NCBI GenBank assembly: GCA_918797485.1
Contig: CAKKNE010000003.1
Location: 5,022,001-5,086,000, forward strand
Source of the DNA: Pelagomonas calceolata
Taxonomy: Eukaryota
Reading direction: 5' to 3'
DNA length: 64,000 nt
The stretch's first letter is position 1. Every line of letters starts with the position of its first letter. The notes under the pieces were generated by a model. That model had not been told where the DNA came from, did no database searches, and saw only the letters and a list, made by a program, of their open reading frames with translations. The translations under genes and the position numbers were made by a program. Shown here piece after piece: positions 6,391 through 62,810 of this stretch.

Positions 6391-6535
6391 TAGAGAGAGA
6401 AACCTACTAGCCCTTCCTACCCTAGATATGTATCTCCCACTCTCTAAATTTGAGTCTATATATTGAGTGTCTATCGACGCTACGGTGTAACCAATTTACT
6501 ATAAGACACTCTCGTAGTTGGCTTGGCTCAGCCTC
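6391..6535 (-). repeat. dispersed repeat family A, copy 1 (others 10836-10989, 34788-34957, 49000-49157, 62545-62698)
   Basis: Shared TAGAGAGAGAAACC...CCCTAGATATGTATCTCCCACTCTCTAAATTTGAGTCTATA...ACACTCTCGTAGT; the (CT)n end is fixed and the other end varies. Confidence 0.9.
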
Positions 6536-7520
6536 CGCCGAAATGACGTGGAGCCCATTTCGCTATTCGTCTACACCTTGTCGAGCGCACCGTTTGACGC
6601 CCGCGTTTACAATCAAACCTCATTGCACTACAAAACCCTTATGGTCATCGCATCGCCCGGGGGAAAAAAGCCTGCCCCCATCAGCCCTTGGGGCACGGAC
6701 GGCGGCGCGGCCCTTACGGGGCACCCAGGCAGCCGCACCGCCCACGCCGGCACGCTGGATAATCACCCGGCGTGCCGGCGTGGGAGCTACTGGTAGGCAT
6801 TACTGGTAGTAGGCAGAGAGATACTAGATAGCCCACGGGCAATGGGCATGCCGTTCCTCGCATGTATCGCACGACCGGGTCTGACTCGGAATCTGGCTCT
6901 GATGGGGAGGAGGAGGACGACACTTGATCTCCGCGGGATTTCTGAGCTCATGGTCCGACCGGGCGTGCGCGAGGGCCTCGCGAACGCGTCATGGCGGCGT
7001 TCGGCGCGGCGCGACATGTTGGGCAAGTAGGCGATTCATCCTCGGCTTCCTCGCAATTCAACGGGTCGACGGGCCTTCATTGGCGATGTTGACTCACCCC
7101 AGAAATTCAAGCTGCTTCCGATGGCAACTCTTCGGGTCTTCCGTCGGCGCAATGTCGTGAACGCGAGGGTGTTTTTCGCGACTCCCCCGCGGGCGCGGCG
7201 GCGGGCCGGCGGCCGGCTACGGAGATTCTCGCCGGCGGCGGCACTCGGGCACGACTCCACGGAGCGGCGGCGCGGCGGGATCCCGTATGCCTTGACGAGC
7301 TCTGGGTCGGGTCTCAAGCAAAGCGCCTCCGCGTCCGCGTTCAGCAGAATCAAGGTTGTGTGGCGGCGGTTCCCTTTTTTTTTCCCGCACATCGCTGCAC
7401 GACCTCTGCGACGAGTCTCCTGGGGCGGGGAGGGGTCCCGCAAGACCGCGCGCAAAACCCGTCGGTTAAGCTTAGTGCTTCACAGCGGACCCGCACGGCC
7501 ATTTGGCATCGGGATCGCCG

Positions 7521-8803
7521 CGTACGCTGTACCAGCGCGCTGCGCGTTCCTCGCCCCGGTTGTTACTTCCTCAGGGCGGCCAATGGGCCGCGTAACCAGC
7601 TTTTGGGCACCGCTCGTCGCGCTGGCGCCGCGCACTGCATAGGGCTTTCCAGCGCGATTTGGGCTTTTGGGGCCTCACGTCGCCGCGTCGCGTCGGCATT
7701 GGTAGGTTTTTGGACGCGAAGCTCATAGGTAGCATAGCCATGGCTGACCGGGCGGGCTTGGGCAGGCGACGCCGGAATCGCTCGCGGTAGACGCGTCGAG
7801 ACGGCCCGATCGCGGACCTGTTGCATTGACTAATACGCTATCCCTGGAGCCGCACGGCTCTTCGGCGTCGACGCACCCATACCGACGGCTGATCCCGCAC
7901 CTCTTTGGGATCTTCCGACTGCGGAAGCTCGTGGGCGCCTTCTTTGCGGTACCGCTCCCGAGGGCCGACACCGGCACCGGCGCGGACGGCCTCGTTATTG
8001 GAAGATTTTCGAACTGGAGAGTCGGTAGCATCACGGCGCCCTTTGGTGGTCGTGGCGGACCCTGTTGGCGGCGTTTATGTCGGGCTCGTGATGAGTTGTA
8101 ACCAGGAGCCGGCCGCCTTTCGTCTAGGTCACGCCCAGGCGCAATGTAATGTATTCATACTGGTCTATTACTCCGCCCGCCCTACTTGGGCGAAGGCTTT
8201 CGCGAGGGCTTGCGCTATGAGTCTCCCTAGAGGCCTCTAGACCATGCCCGGAGCCAACAGGTCCGCCGCGAGCTCCAATGGCCGCAGTGATGCTACCGAC
8301 TTGGCCGCGGACCCGCTGCGCCATCGTCGAGGCCGTCCGCGCCGGTGCCGGTGTCGGCCCTCGGGAGCCCCACTGAGGAGAAGGCTCCCATGACCTAACC
8401 CAATCAATACATGTCGGAGAGGTGCGGGATCGGCCGTCGGTATGGGTGCGTCGACGCCGAAGAGCCGTGCGGCTCCAGGGATAGCGTATTAGTCAATGCA
8501 ACAGGTCCGCGATCGGGCCGTCTCGACGCGTCTACCGCGAGCGATTCCGGCGTCGCCTGCCCAAGCCCGCCCGGTCAGCCATGGCTATGCTACCTATGAG
8601 CTTCGCGTCCAAAAACCTACCAATGCCGACGCGACGCGGCGACGTGAGGCCCCAAAAGCCCAAATCGCGCTGGAAAGCCCTATGCAGTGCGCGGCGCCAG
8701 CGCGACGAGCGATGCCCAAAAGCTGGTTACGCGGCCCAGTGGCCGCCCTGAGGAAGGGACAGCCGGGGCGAGGAACGCGCAGCGCGCTGGTATAGCGTAT
8801 GCG
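7521..8803. repeat. about 1.3-kb foldback (long inverted repeat)
   Basis: 7521-7904 is the near-identical reverse complement of 8418-8803; weaker inner arm matches 7955-7994/8327-8368 and about 8021-8070/8252-8300. Confidence 0.9.
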
Positions 8804-9820
8804 CCCTTTTTGATGCCAAGTGAGCCACTTAGACTTTAGGGGCGGATCGCAAAAAGAATTAATAGGCAAAACGGGTTTTTCCGATTATGGGACCCCCCCC
8901 ATAGATCCTAACATGGGAATGTCGGGAGCGCCATGCTTACATATTTGGGACGAGGCGCCGCCTCATCGATCCTCTCCCAGTAGCGAGCTCCCGACATTGA
9001 GAATAGTCTTCCTTCGTTAATCGGGCTACCTACTAGTAACCCACTAGAATCAGGCCCCGGCTGCTCACAGCTTTTACGGCTGCTTGCCGGCCCGTCTCTG
9101 TCAGCGGGCTCTGTCTGGCATCCACACATGACATATACCTGCCGCGGGCGATTTCAGAAATCAAGCGCGGCCCAAAATCGCCCAGGACAGCCATTTTGCG
9201 GAAGTACCGGTGCACAGCGATGCGGCACCGCGTCGGCCGACCTCGCGCGCTCTCACGCGACGCGCTCCGACCGACGCTCGGTTTTTGAGATGCCTACCGC
9301 GGCGCTGGAGGCATTTAGTGAGCCCTATTGCCCCGAACGCGGCCTCGGCCGGTAGTACCAGCGGCCGGCGACGGTCAACATAACGGCGCCACGATGCCAG
9401 GCGTGCGTTTCCAGCCACTGCGATCATATCGAAACCGCGTGGGATCATCGAAGACCGCTTTTGGTTCCGCACCCAAAACGCCAGAAAAAAACGTAGGCGT
9501 CTCGCGGCCGTAACTTTTCACCACCCGATCCGTTTGTTGCACCCTTGGGACCGAACCAGACTTATTGACGTACGCCTAAAGGATGGTGACCCCGCTCAGG
9601 GGTCTGGGGGCGCTCCTAGCGAAATCGGGTTTTAGTGTCCGCCCCGAACTTAGTACTAGTACGTGAGCCATGGCCTATGGTGCGGGACCGCTGTGGCTTG
9701 GCTAAATGGGCGTCTTGAGTACCCACGGACGAGCGGTGAGGAACCGCGGACTTGCCTATCGGACGGGGGACCGTGTCCGATGCTGCAGTACAGCTCCTAA
9801 CAGATAATCGGGCGGCTGTC

Positions 9821-10835: not shown

Positions 10836-10989
10836 AGCACGCCACGTACGAGAGTGTTGTACTTTAATTCCCTAGCAAACTGGATTACAAAGTAGCGTCG
10901 TTAGACACTCAATGTATAAACTCAATTTAGAGAGTGGGAGATACATATCTAGGGTAGGAACTTGAAGGGCTAGGGGGTTTCTCTCTCTA
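10836..10989 (+). repeat. family A copy carrying a CTTGAA insertion, followed by a GTAC array
   Basis: AGGAA[CTTGAA]GGGCTAG here versus AGGAAGGGCTAG at 62671; followed by tacggtaccgtaggtaccgtaggtaccgtacc. Confidence 0.85.
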
Positions 10990-11362
10990 CTACGGTACCG
11001 TAGGTACCGTAGGTACCGTACCGTGACTGCCGCGGCGGTGGGACACCAGTAGGGCCTGATTATTCCAAGCTCATGATAGTCCCTTATTCTGAACTCTCGC
11101 AGCGCAATGTGCCGAGATTTAGTACTATCTCTAGTGACTATTGTTGGGATGATTGGTCACACTAAGGCATGCCTGATTATCGATGAACAGTGGGATGGAA
11201 GGAGCCGATTTGACATCATCGAATTTCTGTTCAGCTTGAGCGTGTGCTTGATCGAACGCGTTTTGCACTGAAGAACCTACAGGAGGTACCTACGGTACCT
11301 ACGGTACCGTAGGTACAGCATGAGCATGACATTGTGCGCATGCTGATTGATTTCCGGCAGCC

Positions 11363-12800: not shown

Positions 12801-13068
12801 GGGCGCTTTGGTAGGAGGGGCGAACTGGGGCCGTGGCCTGGTCACGTCGGGGCGGCCGCATATTTTTAAGTGAGTCCTTCGTTAAGTCTCCAGGCGAGTT
12901 TTTTTTCATATCTCGCTTTATTCGCCTGCCGCGGCGTGGGGAGGGGTTCCATGCCATACTAGTAGCTGGAGTGTCAAGCGGCGTGATGTGGAGCTCCGCC
13001 TCCTCCGTCCTCGGATTCTAATGTATTTATTTACCTGCCCCGCTGGCGGGCCGGGAGGTATTTATTCG

Positions 13069-13501
13069 AAGCTCCGGTTGGGTCACGGTATCCTGACTGA
13101 GCAGGGCGAAGGCTCATAGCTTGTTCCTTATTTTTTAGATCTTCCATATAGGCCTTACTGCCAGAAAAACCAGTAATCATTAATCAGCTCGGAGCCAGGC
13201 CTTCACCAACACGCCCGCGCACGCCGCGACGACTCACGCTTCTCCGACCGGCAGCAAGCTTACGTACACGCTCGCGGGGGATAGCTCCCCCGACACTTCC
13301 CCCAAAAGGACTTGATAGTAGAGAACCCGAACTCACCCTAGGGGGTCCCAAAACCCGAAATGATCGCTAGCGGCCAAACGCTGTCGACGTAGAAACCCGC
13401 GAGCTCAGGAGGCCCGGGGCTCGATCGCCAGTGATTTATCTTTAGCTTTGTCTTAGACTAGCGGCCTGTACTTAGATAGAGCAGGTAAGACACTAGCAAG
13501 C
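13069..13501 (+). mobile_element. stack of repeat fragments (family D 13069-13145, family C 13200-13305, family E 13375-13458, motif G 13458-13501) upstream of DBP4
   Basis: Each piece is the reverse complement of a piece in the 28963-29515 stack, in the same order relative to the gene. Confidence 0.75.
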
Positions 13502-20236: not shown

Positions 20237-20925
20237 TGTCTGAGAGCCCTTGCGATGATGCCGCGCGCGCCCAAGGACCTGGTCTTGTTTGCTTGCCTAG
20301 TGTCTTACAAGCCGCTAGCCCGTTTTTATTTTGAGAGTTTCGTCGCGGTCTTCCTCCTTTGGGCCAGTTCGAGGTGTGTCGGCCTCAAGGGCAGCCTTCT
20401 TAGGACGCGTGCGGGTTGCGTCACGGTAAGCGCAAGACAGTCAGAGTTTGCCACACGGTGTGTCCTTGTACCGGCGCTGGGCTCGAGGAGTACCCGCCCC
20501 GGGCTTGGCTCAGAGGCTCCTGAGGTTGCGTAGGTCAGTAGGATAGGATAGGAAGGGAGTTGCGGTCTAAGACTCGGAATAAGGAACTAGCTCCTAAGAG
20601 CGCTTCTCCCTGCTCAGTCAGGATACCGTGACCCAACCGGAGCTTCGAAATGGCAATAAGATAGCGATATAAAGGATTCTCAATCTCTTAGCCTGAGAGC
20701 TAGGGAAGAGCTAGGCCGCCTAGCCACCTGGCGAAACGAGCTCCGACGCGGGGCCCGTTTATCTACTTCTAGTATTCCAAGTTATAAATCCCCCATTTCC
20801 AAAGAAAGGCCAGCAGCACACATCCGAGGGCGGAGACGATGGCGACGGGACGCTAGATTGACTAAAAACGCCGTGGTTCGCCTGGACGCGCCCGCTGTAA
20901 AATGGACTGGCAAAATGCTCCTTGT

Positions 20926-21418
20926 CTACGTGGCCTGTGACAACGAAGGTAACGCAAACGCACATCCGTCGACGCACCTGGAGGAATTTTCGGATGCTCT
21001 GTAGAAGTTCCGTTTTGACCTCGTCGGGCACCGTCGCTGCGGGGCCGCGCGTCGCGCGTCGCGCGACACACAAGGAACGCACCTCGGCCGCGGGGCGTAA
21101 TTTCCGCGACTAGCTCGTCGACGGTAATCTTTTCCAGGCCTTTGCTCCGAATCACCTCTGCACAAAAGCACGTCATCTTACGGGGCGCGAGGAGCGCGCG
21201 CGCACCTTTACAATATTCTTTGAGTTCGTCCCGCCAGCCACATTCGATGAGTTTTTGCCGCAGCAGCTCCTTGAGACGCTCTTTCTCGCCGGTCTCGACG
21301 AGCTTCTGCATGATTGTCGTCCGCACAGCGTCATCCTTCTGCTTCCGCTCTTGAGCCCCCCTGTGCGCAAATGATTGCTCAGAAATTCTTTCGGTGAGGA
21401 AACGTACGCGTCGCTCAT
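20926..21418 (-). CDS. ENY2: transcription and mRNA export factor ENY2/Sus1, 4 short GT-AG introns
   Basis: Spliced [102 protein letters not shown]. Confidence 0.92.
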
Positions 21419-21493
21419 CCCGGCGTTTGGTGCCTGCGGACGTTATGAACAGCGCGCCCACAGCTATACAGAGTCTAAAGAGTAAAAGTTAAT

Positions 21494-21718
21494 GCTATAG
21501 TCAATTCGGGTTGGGGGGGCGCGCGCCTAGGGAGGGGTGTCGGGGAAGCTATCCCCCGCGAGTGTGTACGTAAGCTTGCTGCCGGTCGTAGAAGCGTGCG
21601 TCGTCGTCGCCTTGCCCGGGCGCGTTGGTGAAGTCCGGGTTCCCGCCGACGAGCCGTCGATCTTGATCCGGGCGTACTCGCGCGCCGTCTTGATGCCCCA
21701 GCGACGGTAAAGGCGGTT
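21494..21718 (-). mobile_element. family C: 5'-truncated 3' end of a non-LTR retrotransposon
   Basis: Same sequence at 29121-29369, 52056-52486, 30925-31072 and 13200-13305; the three longest copies share the end ...AATTGACTATAGC and differ in 5' truncation. Confidence 0.75.
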
Positions 21719-27089: not shown

Positions 27090-27163
27090 GCATGCGTAGC
27101 TCAGTTGGTTAGAGCGTGGGTCTAATAAACCCAAGGTCGTGGGTTCGACCCCCTCCGAGAGTA
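27090..27163 (+). tRNA. tRNA-Ile(AAT), probably a pseudogene (broken acceptor stem)
   Basis: D arm TAGCTCAGTTGGTTAGAGC, anticodon arm TGGGT-CTAATAA-ACCCA, T loop GGTTCGACCC, downstream T-run. Acceptor GCATGCG/CGAGAGT has 2 mismatches and the T stem has a T-T mismatch. Confidence 0.75.
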
Positions 27164-28962: not shown

Positions 28963-29387
28963 CTGCTAGTAGTGTCTTTACTAGCTTGTACATATTATGC
29001 CGGGCGGGGAGTTTAAGACAAAGCTAAAGATAAATCACTTGCGATCGAGCCCCGGGCCTCCTGAGCTCGCGGGTTTCTACGTCGACAGCCATTTTGGGCG
29101 GCTCAATTTTTTATTTAATAGCTATAGTCAATTCGGGTTTGGGAGGCGCGCGCCTAGGGAGGGGTGTCGGGGGGGCTATCCCCCGCGAGTGTGTACGTAA
29201 GCTTGCTGCCGGTCGTAGAAGCGTGCGTCGTCGTCGCCGTGCCCGGGCGCGTTGGTGAAGTCCGGGTTCCCGCCGACGAGCCGGGGGCCGTCGATCTTGA
29301 TCCGGGCGTACTCGAGCGCCGTCTTGATGCCCCAGCGGCGGTAAAGGCGGTTCTTGAGCAGGGCGGCCGCATGCCGGTGGCTACGAA

Positions 29388-29435
<48 letters not shown>

Positions 29436-29515
29436 ATTAAGGAAGACCTAAAAAAAGGAACAAGCTCCTAAGAGCCTTCTCCCTGCTCGGTCGGGATACC
29501 CAACCGGAGCTTCAT
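28963..29515 (-). mobile_element. promoter stack: motif G, family E (29010-29095), family C (29121-29369), family D with (TTTA)n tail (29388-29515)
   Basis: Matches to 13069-13501, 20578-20648 and 31095-31179; about 12 AAAT units at 29390-29437. Confidence 0.8.
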
Positions 29516-30790: not shown

Positions 30791-31179
30791 AGTTGTATAG
30801 GCTCAAGCCCGCGCCCAGTGCAGGTGTGCTGCTCTATAAGCACGTTTTGCCAAGGACCTAGGCCTGTGCTTAGCTCTAGGGATGCCTAGTGTGTCTTACG
30901 GGCCGCTAGCTCGTTTGCGGCGCGGGAGGGGTATCGGGGGAGCTATCCCCCGCGAGCGTGGAGGTAAGCTTGCTGTCGGGCGTAGAAGCTTGCTGTCGGG
31001 CGTAGAAGCTTGCTGTCGCCGGCGTGTTGGTGAAGTCCGGGTTGCCGCCGTCGATCTTGATCCGTACTCGCGCAGCCTAGCTCTAAGCAAAAGCAAATAA
31101 ATAAATAAATTAATTAAGGAAGACCTAAAAAAAGGAACGAGCTCGTAAGAGCCTTCTCCCTGCTCGGTCAGGATGCCCA

Positions 31180-32159
31180 TGCGATGCATAGGGAAATAGA
31201 GTGTGTAGCTCCGGACTTCCCCGGCAGCGTAGTCACGGTGTAGTCGTCTAACGAAATAGTTTCTCCCATGTTTGATGGGGTATGTGACGGGGAATTGCGT
31301 CCGTCAATAAAAGGTGACTCAGGATGATAATAGTTAGGAGTGAGAGGCGACTTCCCCCTACTAAGGGGATATCGGAGTACCCTAGGATGGGAAGTAGCCT
31401 AGGCGGGTAATACAAGTACGGGTTGTGCTTGGATACGTCTCAGTTGAACCTTGGGATCCTACTAGATGTGTATTTCCATTGCACTCCCCCATTGTCGTGA
31501 TCGTGATCAGATTGCGATAATCATGAAATCGCGGCAAGGAGGATAACATTTAAGTTTAACATTTCAATAAGGTGGATCATCCTGATGGTACCGCAGTACC
31601 GACAGTTATTCAATTAGTAGTTGGTCATTTAGTGCTTGTTCATTTAGTGGTGTGGTTGTTTTGTGCGTTTAGTTGTTTTTGTTTTAGGCGACTTCCCCCT
31701 ACTAAGGGGATATCGGAGTACCCTAGGATGGGAAGTAGCCTAGGCGGGTAATACAAGTACGGGTTGTGCTTGGATACGTCTCAGTTGAACCTTGGGATCC
31801 TACTAGATGTGTATTTCCATTGCACTCCCCCATTGTCGTGATCGTGATCAGATTGCGATAATCATGAAATCGCGGCAAGGAGGATAACATTTAAGTTTAA
31901 CATTTCAATAAGGTGGATCATCCTGATGGTACCGCAGTACCGACAGTTATTCAGTGTGGTTGGTCAGTGCTTGTTCATTTAGTGGTGTGGTTGTTTTGTG
32001 CGTTTAGTTGTTTTTGTTTTAGGCGACTTCCCCCTACTAAGGGGATATCGGAGTACCCTAGGATGGGAAGTAGCCTAGGCGGGTAATACAAGTACGGGTT
32101 GTGCTTGGATACGTCTCAGTTGAACCTTGGGATCCTACTAGATGTGTATTTCCATTGCA
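31180..32159 (-). mobile_element. Copia-like LTR retrotransposon remnant: one complete ~300-bp LTR plus two tandem ~340-bp duplications; 5-bp TSD GCCCA
   Basis: Units start at 31345, 31686 and 32021. On the minus strand a PPT (AATGGGGGAG) directly precedes TGCAATGGAAATA and the LTR ends TATTTCCCTATGCA. GCCCA flanks both sides (31175-31179, 32160-32164). A related LTR start lies at 62279-62347. Confidence 0.75.
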
Positions 32160-34624: not shown

Positions 34625-34974
34625 TACCGCAGTCGCGGTGAGGCTGCCCAGAGACGACGCACGTTATGAGTAAGATGTACGGTCTCTCTCGGGGGCAGGG
34701 ACCGCATTCCGGCTCCCGGGTCAGCAGCCCGCACCGGAGTGATTCACAGATGAGCGTACCGGTACCGTGGTACTTGCTGGCACCACGTAGAGAGAGAAAC
34801 CACTAGCCTTTCCTACCCTAGATATGTATCTCCCACTCTCTAATATTTGAGTCTATACATTGAGTGCCAAAAGCACTACGGTGTAACAACAGTTCACTAT
34901 AAAACACTCTCGTAGTCAGGCCTATCAGCCCTAGGCTGGTTAGCTAGGACCCTGCTACTTTACATAACGCTGAA

Positions 34975-39610: not shown

Positions 39611-39775
39611 CTGTTCGTGACTTGAGCCAGGACGGCTCGATGCGGAGCACTGATGATGAGAGTTACAACTCGTGCATGCTACATGTACCTGCGGTACCAC
39701 GGTACCAAGTACCATGGTACCGTACCGACCGGCTTGAAAAGTTTTCTTACTGAGCGGGGAGAAAAACACACACAG

Positions 39776-40714: not shown

Positions 40715-40959
40715 GTGCGACACATCGCAAAGGCAGACGTGTCGCGGCAGCCTGAGCCCGGTATCCGTACCAGGCCGTCCGGGGGCCCGGGTCCCCGGGG
40801 CTTGGCGTTCAACGGCCTCCTTCCACTCATAAAGCTCCTAACTTTGCTCTGGTTCACTATTTTAGTTATTTTCAATTATATCTTGAAACCTGGATAAGGT
40901 ACGAACTTGTTTACCGTAGGTACCGTACCGCATTAGGTACCCGGGCCGTACCGCAGTAC

Positions 40960-41082
40960 CTGCTATGATATGGCCACGGCCCCTTTTCCACATATAAATC
41001 TCCCAAATTTTATCTTAGCTTCACTATCCTAGTCTCATTTATCTTGGTTAGATACCCGGATAGAATAGGCCTAGTGAATACG
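40960..41082 (+). mobile_element. family B element, internally deleted copy (CTGCTATGATATGGCCA...CCTAGTGAATACG) inside a GTAC array
   Basis: Both termini are shared with the 60217-60707 copy; GTAC on the left, GTAGGTAC on the right. Confidence 0.8.
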
Positions 41083-41299
41083 GTAGGTACCTACGGTACC
41101 GTAGGTACCATACCGCAGTAGGTAACGTACCGTAGGTACGGTACCGGTAACCCCCTACTGCGGTACAACAGGCCGAAAATCGCGGTAAAAGCCACGGCCA
41201 CTCCGCTGCGCGGCCCAGTGTCTATCGCGGTTGGGGTTAAAACGCCTCGCCAGCTTGAGCCGTTCGACCACGCACCGACGACAGCGCGCGCGCAGGACG

Positions 41300-46805: not shown

Positions 46806-47780
46806 GTATTCACTAGGCCTACTCTATCCGGGTATTTAACCAAGATAAGTGAGACTAGGATAGTGAAGCTAAGATAAAATTTTGGGAGATTTATAAGTGG
46901 AAAAGAGGCCGTTGCCACAACGGGCGCCAACCCCAGGGACCCCGGACCACGCGCCCCCGCGCCAAAACAACCAAGGGAGGGTGGGAGGGCCAAAAATTCT
47001 TGCTCCTTTGTCCTGCGCTCGCACAATCGGAGCGCTGTTGGACACGAGCAAGTATAAGAAAGTATCTTGCAGCGAGCCACTAGATGTGACGATATTGCTG
47101 CCAAGATACCAAAACATAGCTGACACTGGCAGACCTGAGTCAGCCTTACATAGGTTCGGGACAGCCCTTGGGTCTCTTATTAAAGCTCCTTCTGTAAACA
47201 GAGGGCTGTTGACCCCTCTCATCACGGGCGCCGCGGGATTACAACGATCCACTGATTGGATTCAAAGGTTGAACAAGAAGTTCCGGGGAAAACCCCACCT
47301 TTAGGGGAATTACCATAAGCCCCTTTGGCAGTGCCTGAGCTAAATTGGTAAGACAATTTAGCTCGCCAACAAATCATACAGATTTGCGACAGGTCGAACA
47401 GTCAGTACCACGGGGTCTGGCAACTAGGGGAAAGAAAATTTCCGGAAATTTCGGAAATTTCCACCCCTCTAGATTTCATTTCCTGGAAATTGCTCAACTA
47501 TAGGCCCGGGGTCACGGTGGGAGGGCCAAAAATTCTTGCTCCTTAGTCCTGCGCTCTCACAATCGGAGCGCTATGGGACACGAGCAAGTATAAGGAGGTA
47601 TCTTGTAGCGAGCCACTAGGTGTGACGATATTGCTACCGTGACCAAGATACCAATCATAGCTGACAGACCAGAGTCAGCCTTACAAAGGTTCGGGACAGC
47701 CCCTGGGGTTCTCATTAAAGCTCCTCCTGTAAACAGAGGGTTGTTGAACCCTCTCATCACGGGCCGGGCGCCGCGGGATC
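46806..47780 (-). mobile_element. family B copy with a duplicated ~255-bp internal segment (46981-47238 / 47517-47779)
   Basis: TATTCACTAGGCCTACTCTATCCGGG end as at 60217; the two direct copies differ by substitutions and 5-6-bp indels. Confidence 0.8.
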
Positions 47781-48999: not shown

Positions 49000-49645
49000 T
49001 AGAGAGAGAGAAACCCTCTAGCCCTATGTATCTCCCACTCTAAATTTGAGTCTATACACTGGGTGTCTAACGGCGCTACGGTGTAAACCAATTTATAATA
49101 AAACACTCTCGTAGTTGGTTTGGCCCAGCCTCTGGCTGGTGAGCTAGGACCCTGCTATAGCCTGAGCCTGACTCGGAGAGGCTGAGCCTCGTCTGATATT
49201 ATTTTCCATGCGCTTTCAGATGGTTCGACATCCGTGGCTGTTTCGCCATCAGTCATGTTATGCACAGAGCCTGTATCATCGTCTGATGACTCATCGTCTG
49301 ACGACTCAGACAGAAGATTCGGCAGGGAATTGATTGAGAAGATTGATTCATCATCTGATTCATCCGATTCGACGTATGCACCATATGCCTGAAGCGTGGC
49401 CTCATTGGGTATGTCTGGATGCACTGTTTGTCCAACCATGAGGGTGTCACGGTTGCCTGGGGCGCGTGGTCCGGGGGCCCTGGGGTTGGCGCCCGTTGTG
49501 GCAACGGCCTTTTCCACTTATAAATCTCCCAAATTTTATCTTAGCTTCACTATCCTAGTCTCATTTATCCTAGTTAAATACCCGGATAGAATAGGGCGTG
49601 TGAATATACGGTACGGTATTTACGGTACCTACGGTACCGTAGGTA
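49000..49645. mobile_element. back-to-back family A (49000-49157) and family B (49460-49610) copies plus a GTAC array in a divergent promoter
   Basis: Family A (CT)n end faces the ATG at 48855, family B TACG end faces the ATG at 49771; an acidic ORF fragment lies between them. Confidence 0.75.
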
Positions 49646-51829: not shown

Positions 51830-52055
51830 TGTTGCTGTTGACGCTTGAATCAGGCCCGTGCGTTTTAGTTTTGCGCTATTTTTTAGGTTCCGCAAGCTGT
51901 GCAGCCAGCGCTGCCGTGGCACCTGAGATTGCCTGCGGTACCATGGTAGTATTGGTACCTACCGTAGGTACCGTAGGTACGGGACTCGGCTTCTTACCAG
52001 TAGCTACTGCGGTACCTACGGTACCTACTGCGGTAGCCTAGCGCGCAGTTGGGAT

Positions 52056-52486
52056 AGCTATAGTCAATTTGGGTTTTGCGCGCGATTCCTGGCGCACCTA
52101 GAAGGGGGGCTAGAGGGGGGGGGGGGCACGCGCTAGGGGGGGGTATCGGGGGAGCTATCCCCCGCGAGCGTGTACGTAAGCTTGCTGCCGGTCGTAGAAG
52201 CGTGCGTCGTCGTCGCCGTGCCCGAGCCCGGGCGGCGCGTTGGTGAAGTCCGGGTTACCGCCGACGAGCCGGGGGCCGTCGATCTTGATCCGGGCGTACT
52301 CGCGCGCCGTCTTGATGCCCCAGCGACGGTAAAGGCGGTTCTTGAGCAGGGCGGCCGTGTGGTCCTGCGAGGTCGCGCCGTCCTCGACCCAGGTCCGAGC
52401 GGCGGTCGCGTCCGCGGTAGTCGCCACCATATTCCCGCTGGAAGGGTGCGCACCACCGGGGCGCTCGAAGACGACGTCGACCCACT
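52056..52486 (-). mobile_element. longest family C copy; encodes a C-terminus resembling RLE-type (CRE-like) non-LTR retrotransposon proteins
   Basis: ADATAARTWVEDGATSQDHTAALLKNRLYRRWGIKTAREYARIKIDG...ARGG-stop, then a short 3'UTR abutting the GTAC array at 51935-52036. Confidence 0.6.
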
Positions 52487-60117: not shown

Positions 60118-60216
60118 TTCAGGCGCAGGCGGATAGCGTGCAATGCGCCAGCCTCCCTGCGTGCGGCCCCGCTGCAGTACCTTGTGCTTTTGTACCGTAG
60201 GAGGTACCGTAGGTAC

Positions 60217-60707
60217 CGTATTCACTAGGCCTACTCTATCCGGGTATTTAACCAAGATAAGTGAGACTAGGATAGTGAAGCTAAGATAAAAATTTGGGAG
60301 ATTTATAAGTGGAAAAGAGGCCGTTGCCACAACGGGCACCAACCCCCGGGGACCCCGGACCACGCGCCCCCGCGCCAAAACAAACCAAGGGAGGTGTGGC
60401 ACTCCCTAACTTAGCCAGCATCCGCGCCATGTCCTCATATTCGACGCGAATCAAGACACGTCTCAAATCAAGCGTATCAGCACACGGCCTAAGTTTCTCA
60501 CTGGTCTCACCAAACACTTTGTAAGCTATCGCATGTTGCATATGGCTTTTCTCCGTCATCCAGTCGATAACGTCCGCCCATCTAGCATCAAGTTTTGCGC
60601 TCCTCACTAATCTTAAGAATTGGACTTGACTTGCAGCAGGCACATCAGGACTAAAGGGCATGTTCATAGTGGCACTGTCCACAAGAGCCTTGGCCATATC
60701 ATAGCAG
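60217..60707 (-). mobile_element. family B element, 491 bp, flanked by GTAC on both sides
   Basis: + strand: GTAC|CGTATTCACTAGG...TGGCCATATCATAGCAG|GTAC; no terminal inverted repeat beyond C...G. Confidence 0.8.
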
Positions 60708-60799
60708 GTACCGTAGGTAGGTGCCGTGGTGCTCTTGCCTGTGCAAGCGCGCACTGGGCTGGCAGTGAATTTATCATTCGATGCCACACTCCCTACTCC

Positions 60800-62045: not shown

Positions 62046-62810
62046 CGAAGAGCTTTGCAAGAATTGCGTCGATGTTGGCTCAAGCTGAGCCAGCGCCTCC
62101 CCGAAGCGGCAGAAATATGGCACCGCTCAGCATCGACCTCTGGCTGCGACATCGATTCGGCCACCTTTCACAGAAACTCGTCGATGGCCCGCCCGTGGGA
62201 AACGCATCGGGGAACCAAATGGGAATCGCATTCCAGCGATTGAAATGGACCGGGTGTTGCTGGCGTGCTCGATAGTAGTGCAATGGAAATACACGTCTAG
62301 TAGGATTCCAATGTTCAACTGAGACGTATCCAAGCACACCCGTACTACTAAAAGCTGGTACGCCGAGAGTGTTGTATACTCGAGAATGTATCTCATTGTG
62401 GCTCAACTTGAACAGTGTAACAATTAAATTCCTAGCCTGAGATGGATAGTCCGGGGCCTATGCGTCTAGTGGACTCCGAGTCTTGGGAGGCCAGTAGCCT
62501 GAGGCCGGTAGCACGCATGTGATGCTTGTGGCCACCAATGTCTAACCAGCCTAGGGCTGATAGGCCTGACTGCGAGAGTGTTTTATAGTGAACAGTTGTT
62601 ACACCGTAGTGCTTTTGACACTCGATGTATAGACTCAAATATTAGAGAGTGGGAGATACATATCTAGGGTAGGAAGGGCTAGTAGGTTTCTCTCTCTAGT
62701 ACCTACGGTACCACCTACGGTACCTATACTGCGGTAGGGAGGAGGAATGCGCCGGAGCCTTCACAGTACTTGGAGCGCCACACGCGGCATGAGCCGGCAG
62801 CGTCTGCTTG

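Follow-up and report, generated by a model that had tools for sequence, protein, structure and literature searches.

The Family B repeats of the Pelagomonas calceolata window (the whole stretch of 64,000 nucleotides that was analysed) are very probably solo, deleted A-B remnants of a split-direct-repeat tyrosine recombinase (YR) retrotransposon of the DIRS order, which likely integrates at GTACC-T-ACGGTAC without target duplication. The window is GC-rich eukaryotic DNA carrying host genes and GC-AG-looking introns, and its Family B repeat is also present in marine metagenomes. The preliminary description was right to present Family B as a mobile element with asymmetric ends, without terminal inverted repeats (TIRs) and tied to GTAC arrays, and the recombinase-type option that it had considered is borne out by a tyrosine recombinase in relatives. 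Its view that the element fits no nameable superfamily is not supported, since the YR and the split direct repeats very probably place the element in the DIRS order.

Copies, ends and filler in the window

A motif search of the window placed the terminal motifs at 40960 and 41070 on the forward strand and at 60691 and 60217 on the reverse strand, where they had been described. Four copies in the window had the right-hand part in common at 91-97% identity. The E-values of these matches (5e-81 to 4e-44) indicate that they are not due to chance, and together with 37 metagenome loci found with a 27-nt pattern they confirm that the repeat family is real. At the left end, just 16-21 nt are common to the long and short copies. 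These two copies do share their termini, but they had been drawn too wide, and the true ends likely lie further in, at 40961-41079 and 60220-60706. The 491-bp long copy has GTAC on either side, as claimed, whereas the 123-bp short copy is directly followed by GTAG. The two further copies said to retain the TACG end, at 46806-46984 (96.7% identity) and 49459-49606 (90.8%), keep the right end but finish as T|ACC (copy at 46808) and T|ATA (copy at 49605). We rejected CTGCTATA at about 49150 as a left end, as it is part of another repeat family.

With its ends redrawn, the long copy (60220..60706, reverse strand) reads as a solo A-B remnant with internal filler. It comprises the first 16 nt of repeat A (60691..60706), identical to the A start of the metagenome locus L037, then 296 bp of unrelated filler (60395..60690), the 3' end of A (60347..60394) and repeat B (60220..60346; about 127 bp, the match limit to the post-recombinase copy in locus L001). 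Target arrays lie at its right end (60177..60219) and its left end (60707..60722). The short copy (40961..41079, forward strand) is a minimal solo A-B remnant in which a TGGC-A-GGC microhomology marks the joint between the A start and B, with target arrays to its left (40919..40960) and right (41080..41165). A diverged sister B-like end (40780..40914, forward strand; 73-78%) likewise runs T|AC into the short copy's array, and locus L030 holds another diverged solo A-B. On the reverse strand, 46808..47407 consists of B (46808-46935) and most of A (to 47407; the first ~130 bp are absent), and a second A fragment lies at 47516..47779 (86% to 46980-47239). At 49459..49605 on the forward strand, the last ~20 bp of A are followed by B.

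In contigs of four DNA runs, read depth reached 20-100 times that of the flank over about 60204-60385, being highest over B, and stayed at flank level over 60386-60671; these values are summed contig depths over the long copy and not copy numbers, and read runs with small word shares were left out. Because the depth is high only over the right end, we consider that the right end is the family part and that the interior frame is filler. The stop-free frame described at the CTGC end does exist, but it has 141 codons rather than about 100 and lies mostly in the filler, its first ~100 codons falling in the stretch of flank-level depth in all four runs. The filler resembles the 3' end of a coding sequence, with the protein P0002 (74-75%) as its sole close relative. 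The filler protein matched 0 Pfam families and had 0 ESM Atlas matches, and five TPR-repeat proteins from a representative search (26-38% to the filler protein) were set aside as unreliable, their scores being summed over repeats. A 296-bp filler at single-copy depth is no transposase. The record P0066 shares its left flank with window 60707-60787 and then runs on into normal A; this comparison suggests that the copy was inserted first and its interior was exchanged for the filler later, although the 607-bp contig of P0066 could be chimeric.

Other repeats were also observed in the window. They include a fold-back at 7500-8822 (495-bp arms, 93% complementary, 333 bp apart), a tandem ~340-bp repeat at 31345-32159 (98-100% identical; also in L018, L024 and L029) and a third dispersed family of modular pieces (12975-13459, 20578-21718, 29010-29513, 30924-31179 and 52120-52357). 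One tRNA gene at 27090-27163 is the sole Rfam match in the window.

Recombinase and proposed repeat layout in relatives

In four loci (L001, L006, L012 and L015), a frameshifted recombinase gene, oriented like B, lies 130 bp before it; 841 bp are common to L001 and L012 at 99.8%, and the right flanks of these two loci differ. The ESM Atlas neighbours of the L006 recombinase piece belong to the integrase clan. Among the longer recombinase relatives, which were gathered by cluster look-ups, P0079 (377 aa; 81% identical to the L006 piece) is uninterrupted and carries R152-type GFRLDE, SKADRT, HSFR, RW and IYAR motifs in order, the R-H-R-Y residues of a tyrosine recombinase being present in the relatives. 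Its match to Pfam Phage_integrase (E 3.1e-4, 21 bits) is under the cut-off of 27.1, and its matches to PHROG integrases have E-values of 0.002-0.007. The N-part of the YR and its RW/IYAR motifs are presumably like those of DIRS-type YRs. The window contained no recombinase pieces, a search for longer proteins with the recombinase piece returned 0 matches, as did prokaryote genomes and phages, and viral contigs gave 0 for the B pattern, the B-A junction pattern and two protein queries. Within L006, no sequence from runs X1-X3 covered the recombinase stretch (400-879) at 80% likeness, a gap that proves nothing, and 906-1200 matched one RNA-run contig exactly, which does not establish transcription. 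The end of another multi-copy repeat (L006:200-380) stands immediately before the recombinase fragment.

The protein P0085 (664 aa) contains YSDAC, HITHLEF, LFTDA and LADAASR at residues 110-229, four acidic motifs in order, and this region is followed by the recombinase N-half, translated B and the array. By its motif pattern, we take the region to be a putative DIRS-type RNase H. It had 0 matches in Pfam, NCBIfam, PHROGs and PDB; general profiles perform poorly on these domains, according to the available part of PMC3783388. No reverse transcriptase (RT) core was found, P0085 beginning just before the RNase H-like region. AlphaFold without alignments gave two models with pLDDT of 37 and 33.

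The start of A was translated together with upstream residues in 69 of 135 stored proteins, which came from a profile search and cluster member lists; these redundant gene calls derive from short contigs and attest recurrence rather than a number of independent loci. B reads straight into A (VN|AMIW) in 29 of the 69 and an array-type flank does so in 39 (32 P|AMIW and 7 T|CYDMA), one record being too short. Ahead of the 29 B-A junctions stand the post-recombinase spacer (11), the recombinase (1, P0026) or the end of A (10), and seven records are too short. On the 590-kb contig of P0026, the recombinase N-half passes into B and then into the left-end sequence of L037 with no extra residues between them, and in P0120 and P0094, A runs into recombinase sequence. 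B and A have one T in common at the junction. As DNA, the B-A junction was found 0 times in the 37 loci and the window and 0 times in viral contigs, so that it is known through translation alone, and no full-length element was retrieved as DNA. The length of A, ~610 bp, is an estimate from the L037 start and window 46936-47407. The adjacent pairs array-A, A-YR, YR-spacer-B, B-A, A-B and B-array were all seen, never on one molecule; the order that we infer is A1-ORFs-B1-A2-B2.

The full layout would be A1-(gag, RT)-RNase H-YR-spacer-B1-A2-B2. Its RNA would be copied into a DNA circle bearing the B-A junction, and the YR would recombine this junction with the target around the common T (target TAC, junction TGC), the crossover site lying between the inverted arms GTACC/GGTAC of the target. 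In DNA, the junction would read GTGAA-T-GCTATG and not GAATACG-GTAC-CTGCTATG, as had been predicted, save for tandem insertions in one array. Recombination of A1 with A2 would give solo A-B and that of B1 with B2 would give A-ORFs-B, and later deletions with one filler capture would lead to the window copies. Against this layout, ten junction records read A-B-A, an order not expected from it that may reflect tandem units or chimeric assembly, and a spacer-B-A junction is equally expected from the circle of a linear element.

Target site and the GTAC arrays

The right flanks of 30 loci and four window copies comprise 26 distinct sequences, 7 of the 37 loci having been dropped at contig ends. 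The element is sharply delimited on this side, these flanks continuing after GTGAAT with AC in 24 of 26, with ACG in 19 and with ACGGTAC in 17. The left end recurs once in L037, twice in L030 and in two window copies; before TGCTATGAT, CC stands in all five of these DNA copies and GTACC in four. The junction codons GTG AAY GCN ATG leave no space for ACG or CT. Because they exclude these bases, we consider that the element is (T)GCTATG...GTGAA(T) and that the site is GTACC-T-ACGGTAC; accordingly, CT and ACG are target bases, since the end-to-end junction is without them. When the flanks of the long copy were joined in silico, a perfect GGTACCTAC array was formed, and the 13-mer GTACC-T-ACGGTAC has 18 intact copies in the window, compared with 0.001 expected. 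No target-site duplication was found, junction and flanks having one T in common; junction and target agree in 1 nt, or in two of three when TAC is compared with TGC. The analysis recovered no empty allele. Insertion into an existing array unit GTACC-T-ACGGTAC without target duplication is likely.

A Family B end adjoins only 4 of the 20 arrays in the window, and the ends of other repeat families likewise meet arrays as T|AC or T|AG, which is why we regard the arrays as target and not product. The proposal that Family B is the source of the promoter arrays therefore falls, 16 of the 20 arrays being without an adjoining Family B end. Joining the element's terminal bases had been thought to yield both array spacers; of the 54 short spacers that separate two GTACs in the window, CTACG/CGTAG accounts for 18, but CTGCG/CGCAG for just one. 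Arrays occur, for example, at 665-764, 10994-11023, 11285-11317, 39685-39727 and 51937-52026, several of them just upstream of genes. A second family, which ends in ...TTTCTCTCTCT with AC or AG as the next bases and often lies at GTAC arrays, was observed at 6391-6535, 10873-10990, 34783-34957, 49001-49157 and 62542-62697 and in L004 and L028; it is possibly another element with the target of Family B.

In the window arrays, successive TAs are spaced by CC, GG, CCG, CGG, CCGTGG or CCATGG. Across 60 arrays (the window and 28 loci, partly redundant, chosen on GGTAC/GTACC, which biases the spacer count), an initial C or a final G characterises 266 of 268 TA-to-TA spacers, most of which are GG, CC, CCG or CGG. 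The arrays thus look as if they were piled-up footprints of a TA-inserting element. In 19 kb of low-GC window DNA, the motif XY-C-rc(XY)-G-XY was counted 73 times, other spacer pairs giving 3-16; this is an enrichment of about 15-fold over shuffled sequence (mean 4.8, maximum 12) and involves all 16 dinucleotides. In 55 kb of the loci L001-L037, the corresponding counts were 143 and 9-34. These motifs, which abound in the intergenic DNA, appear as small insertions within repeat copies. Judging from sequence, they are likely hairpin-type excision footprints of a DNA transposon that duplicates 2 bp and has C...G ends, and such a footprint-leaving transposon is a better candidate array source than Family B. 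No TA-flanked TIR element or C...G-ended source was found in the window or the loci. In a bolder and rather unlikely picture, a sequence-specific YR retrotransposon that requires just one identical base for recombination would have its safe haven in the piled-up footprints of a different, TA-inserting DNA transposon, and the solo A-B units would themselves be mobile and capture host fragments.

Alternative explanations and known elements

Three other origins were weighed against a split-direct-repeat YR retrotransposon. A Crypton-like YR DNA transposon, linear A-YR-B without RT, would owe its B-A junctions to excised circles or tandems and its A-B units to non-autonomous copies. In the available text of PMC3212892, Cryptons resemble Family B in having a YR, no TIRs and plentiful non-autonomous copies, but differ in 4-6 bp terminal direct repeats and in the lack of RT/RNase H and of long internal repeats. 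YR-spacer-B-array copies are indeed present (L001 and L012) and no RT was found; however, Family B has one common T instead of a 4-6 bp terminal direct repeat, RNase H-like motifs are in frame with the YR in P0085, and a B-A junction lies on the 590-kb contig of P0026. Considering also that the YR N-part and RW/IYAR motifs are, as we presume, DIRS-like, we regard a Crypton-like origin as quite improbable. Even less probable is a non-LTR or Penelope-like element with GTAC as its tail, the copies being 3' ends left by ragged 5' truncation. The inner boundary is ragged at many B-bearing loci and B has a greater read depth than A, as such an element would have it, but the left end is defined in five DNA copies and 39 translated records, the upstream gene encodes a recombinase and not an endonuclease, and arrays stand on the left side too.

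A GTAC-duplicating DNA element, as the preliminary description had it, would leave CTACG/CTGCG spacers on excision and so build the arrays; we consider it almost certainly wrong. GTAC on either side of the long copy and CTACG as the commonest spacer speak for it, but the B-A junction without CT and ACG largely refutes it, and the recombinase and split direct repeats also speak against it. Further, the right flank is variable at its third base, CTGCG is nearly absent, most arrays have no adjoining Family B end while other families end there, and the target extends beyond GTAC; neither TIRs nor a DDE gene was seen, and the filler frame is without Pfam match. The preliminary description had allowed that the family might prove to be the LTR or 3' end of an ordinary retroelement; in spirit this is the outcome, the repeats being those of a YR retroelement and not an LTR.

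Among the closest known YR retrotransposons is Ngaro of Cafeteria burkhardae, which shows A1-ORFs-B1A2B2, RNase H then YR, and scattered solo AB repeats in the available part of PMC8547959. Family B relatives would have a like repeat layout and RNase H-YR order, and they share solo AB units and a marine protist host, the YR being in the same direction; they differ in that the RNase H-like region and YR share one frame (one record), whereas RT/RNase H and YR are separate ORFs in Ngaro, and in a fixed target motif, none being reported in that part of PMC8547959. As far as the accessible text of PMC6681497 goes, TATE inserts at one position in a short tandem (telomere) repeat, a single ORF makes up two of the TATE copies of Bodo saltans, and SIRE equals A2B2. 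TATE and VIPER/SIRE of kinetoplastids have split direct repeats like those proposed for Family B, with SIRE and the Cafeteria solo AB as analogues of the solo remnants. On the other hand, TATE targets telomeric hexamers and Family B dispersed palindromic intergenic arrays, and the TATE/VIPER order is Gag, YR, RT/RNase H, whereas the RNase H-like region precedes the YR in Family B relatives. PAT-like elements (PAT, TOC and kangaroo) share a YR, algal occurrence and probably split direct repeats with Family B (PMC4157794, in part), but have a methyltransferase after the RNase H; no such domain is apparent in the ~200 residues that separate the RNase H-like region from the YR of P0085 (0 Pfam matches, in libraries that also missed the RNase H). 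The YR of kangaroo is inverted, unlike that of Family B relatives. For DIRS1, the available part of PMC3266345 gives a model in which a circle integrates via a 3-bp identical core without duplication. What is proposed for Family B is similar, a circle junction recombining with a genomic site; however, DIRS1-like elements have inverted terminal repeats and a 3-bp core, whereas Family B has direct repeats and 1 bp identical. Literature searches (DIRS with pelagophyte or Pelagomonas; target-specific YR retroelements), with Repbase, most subscription journals and supplements outside their scope, found neither Family B nor the footprint motif described.

In summary, a repeat that had seemed unclassifiable is assigned to a known class, and the origin of the arrays is corrected. 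Family B is ordinary in kind, and its target is notably strict. DIRS-type integration has been modelled but little tested. Family B, which combines a strict 13-bp target with intact relatives of its recombinase in ocean samples, offers a usable model for such integration, and also for site-specific insertion that leaves no duplication. The genome-wide footprint-like motif may be a more surprising lead than Family B itself.
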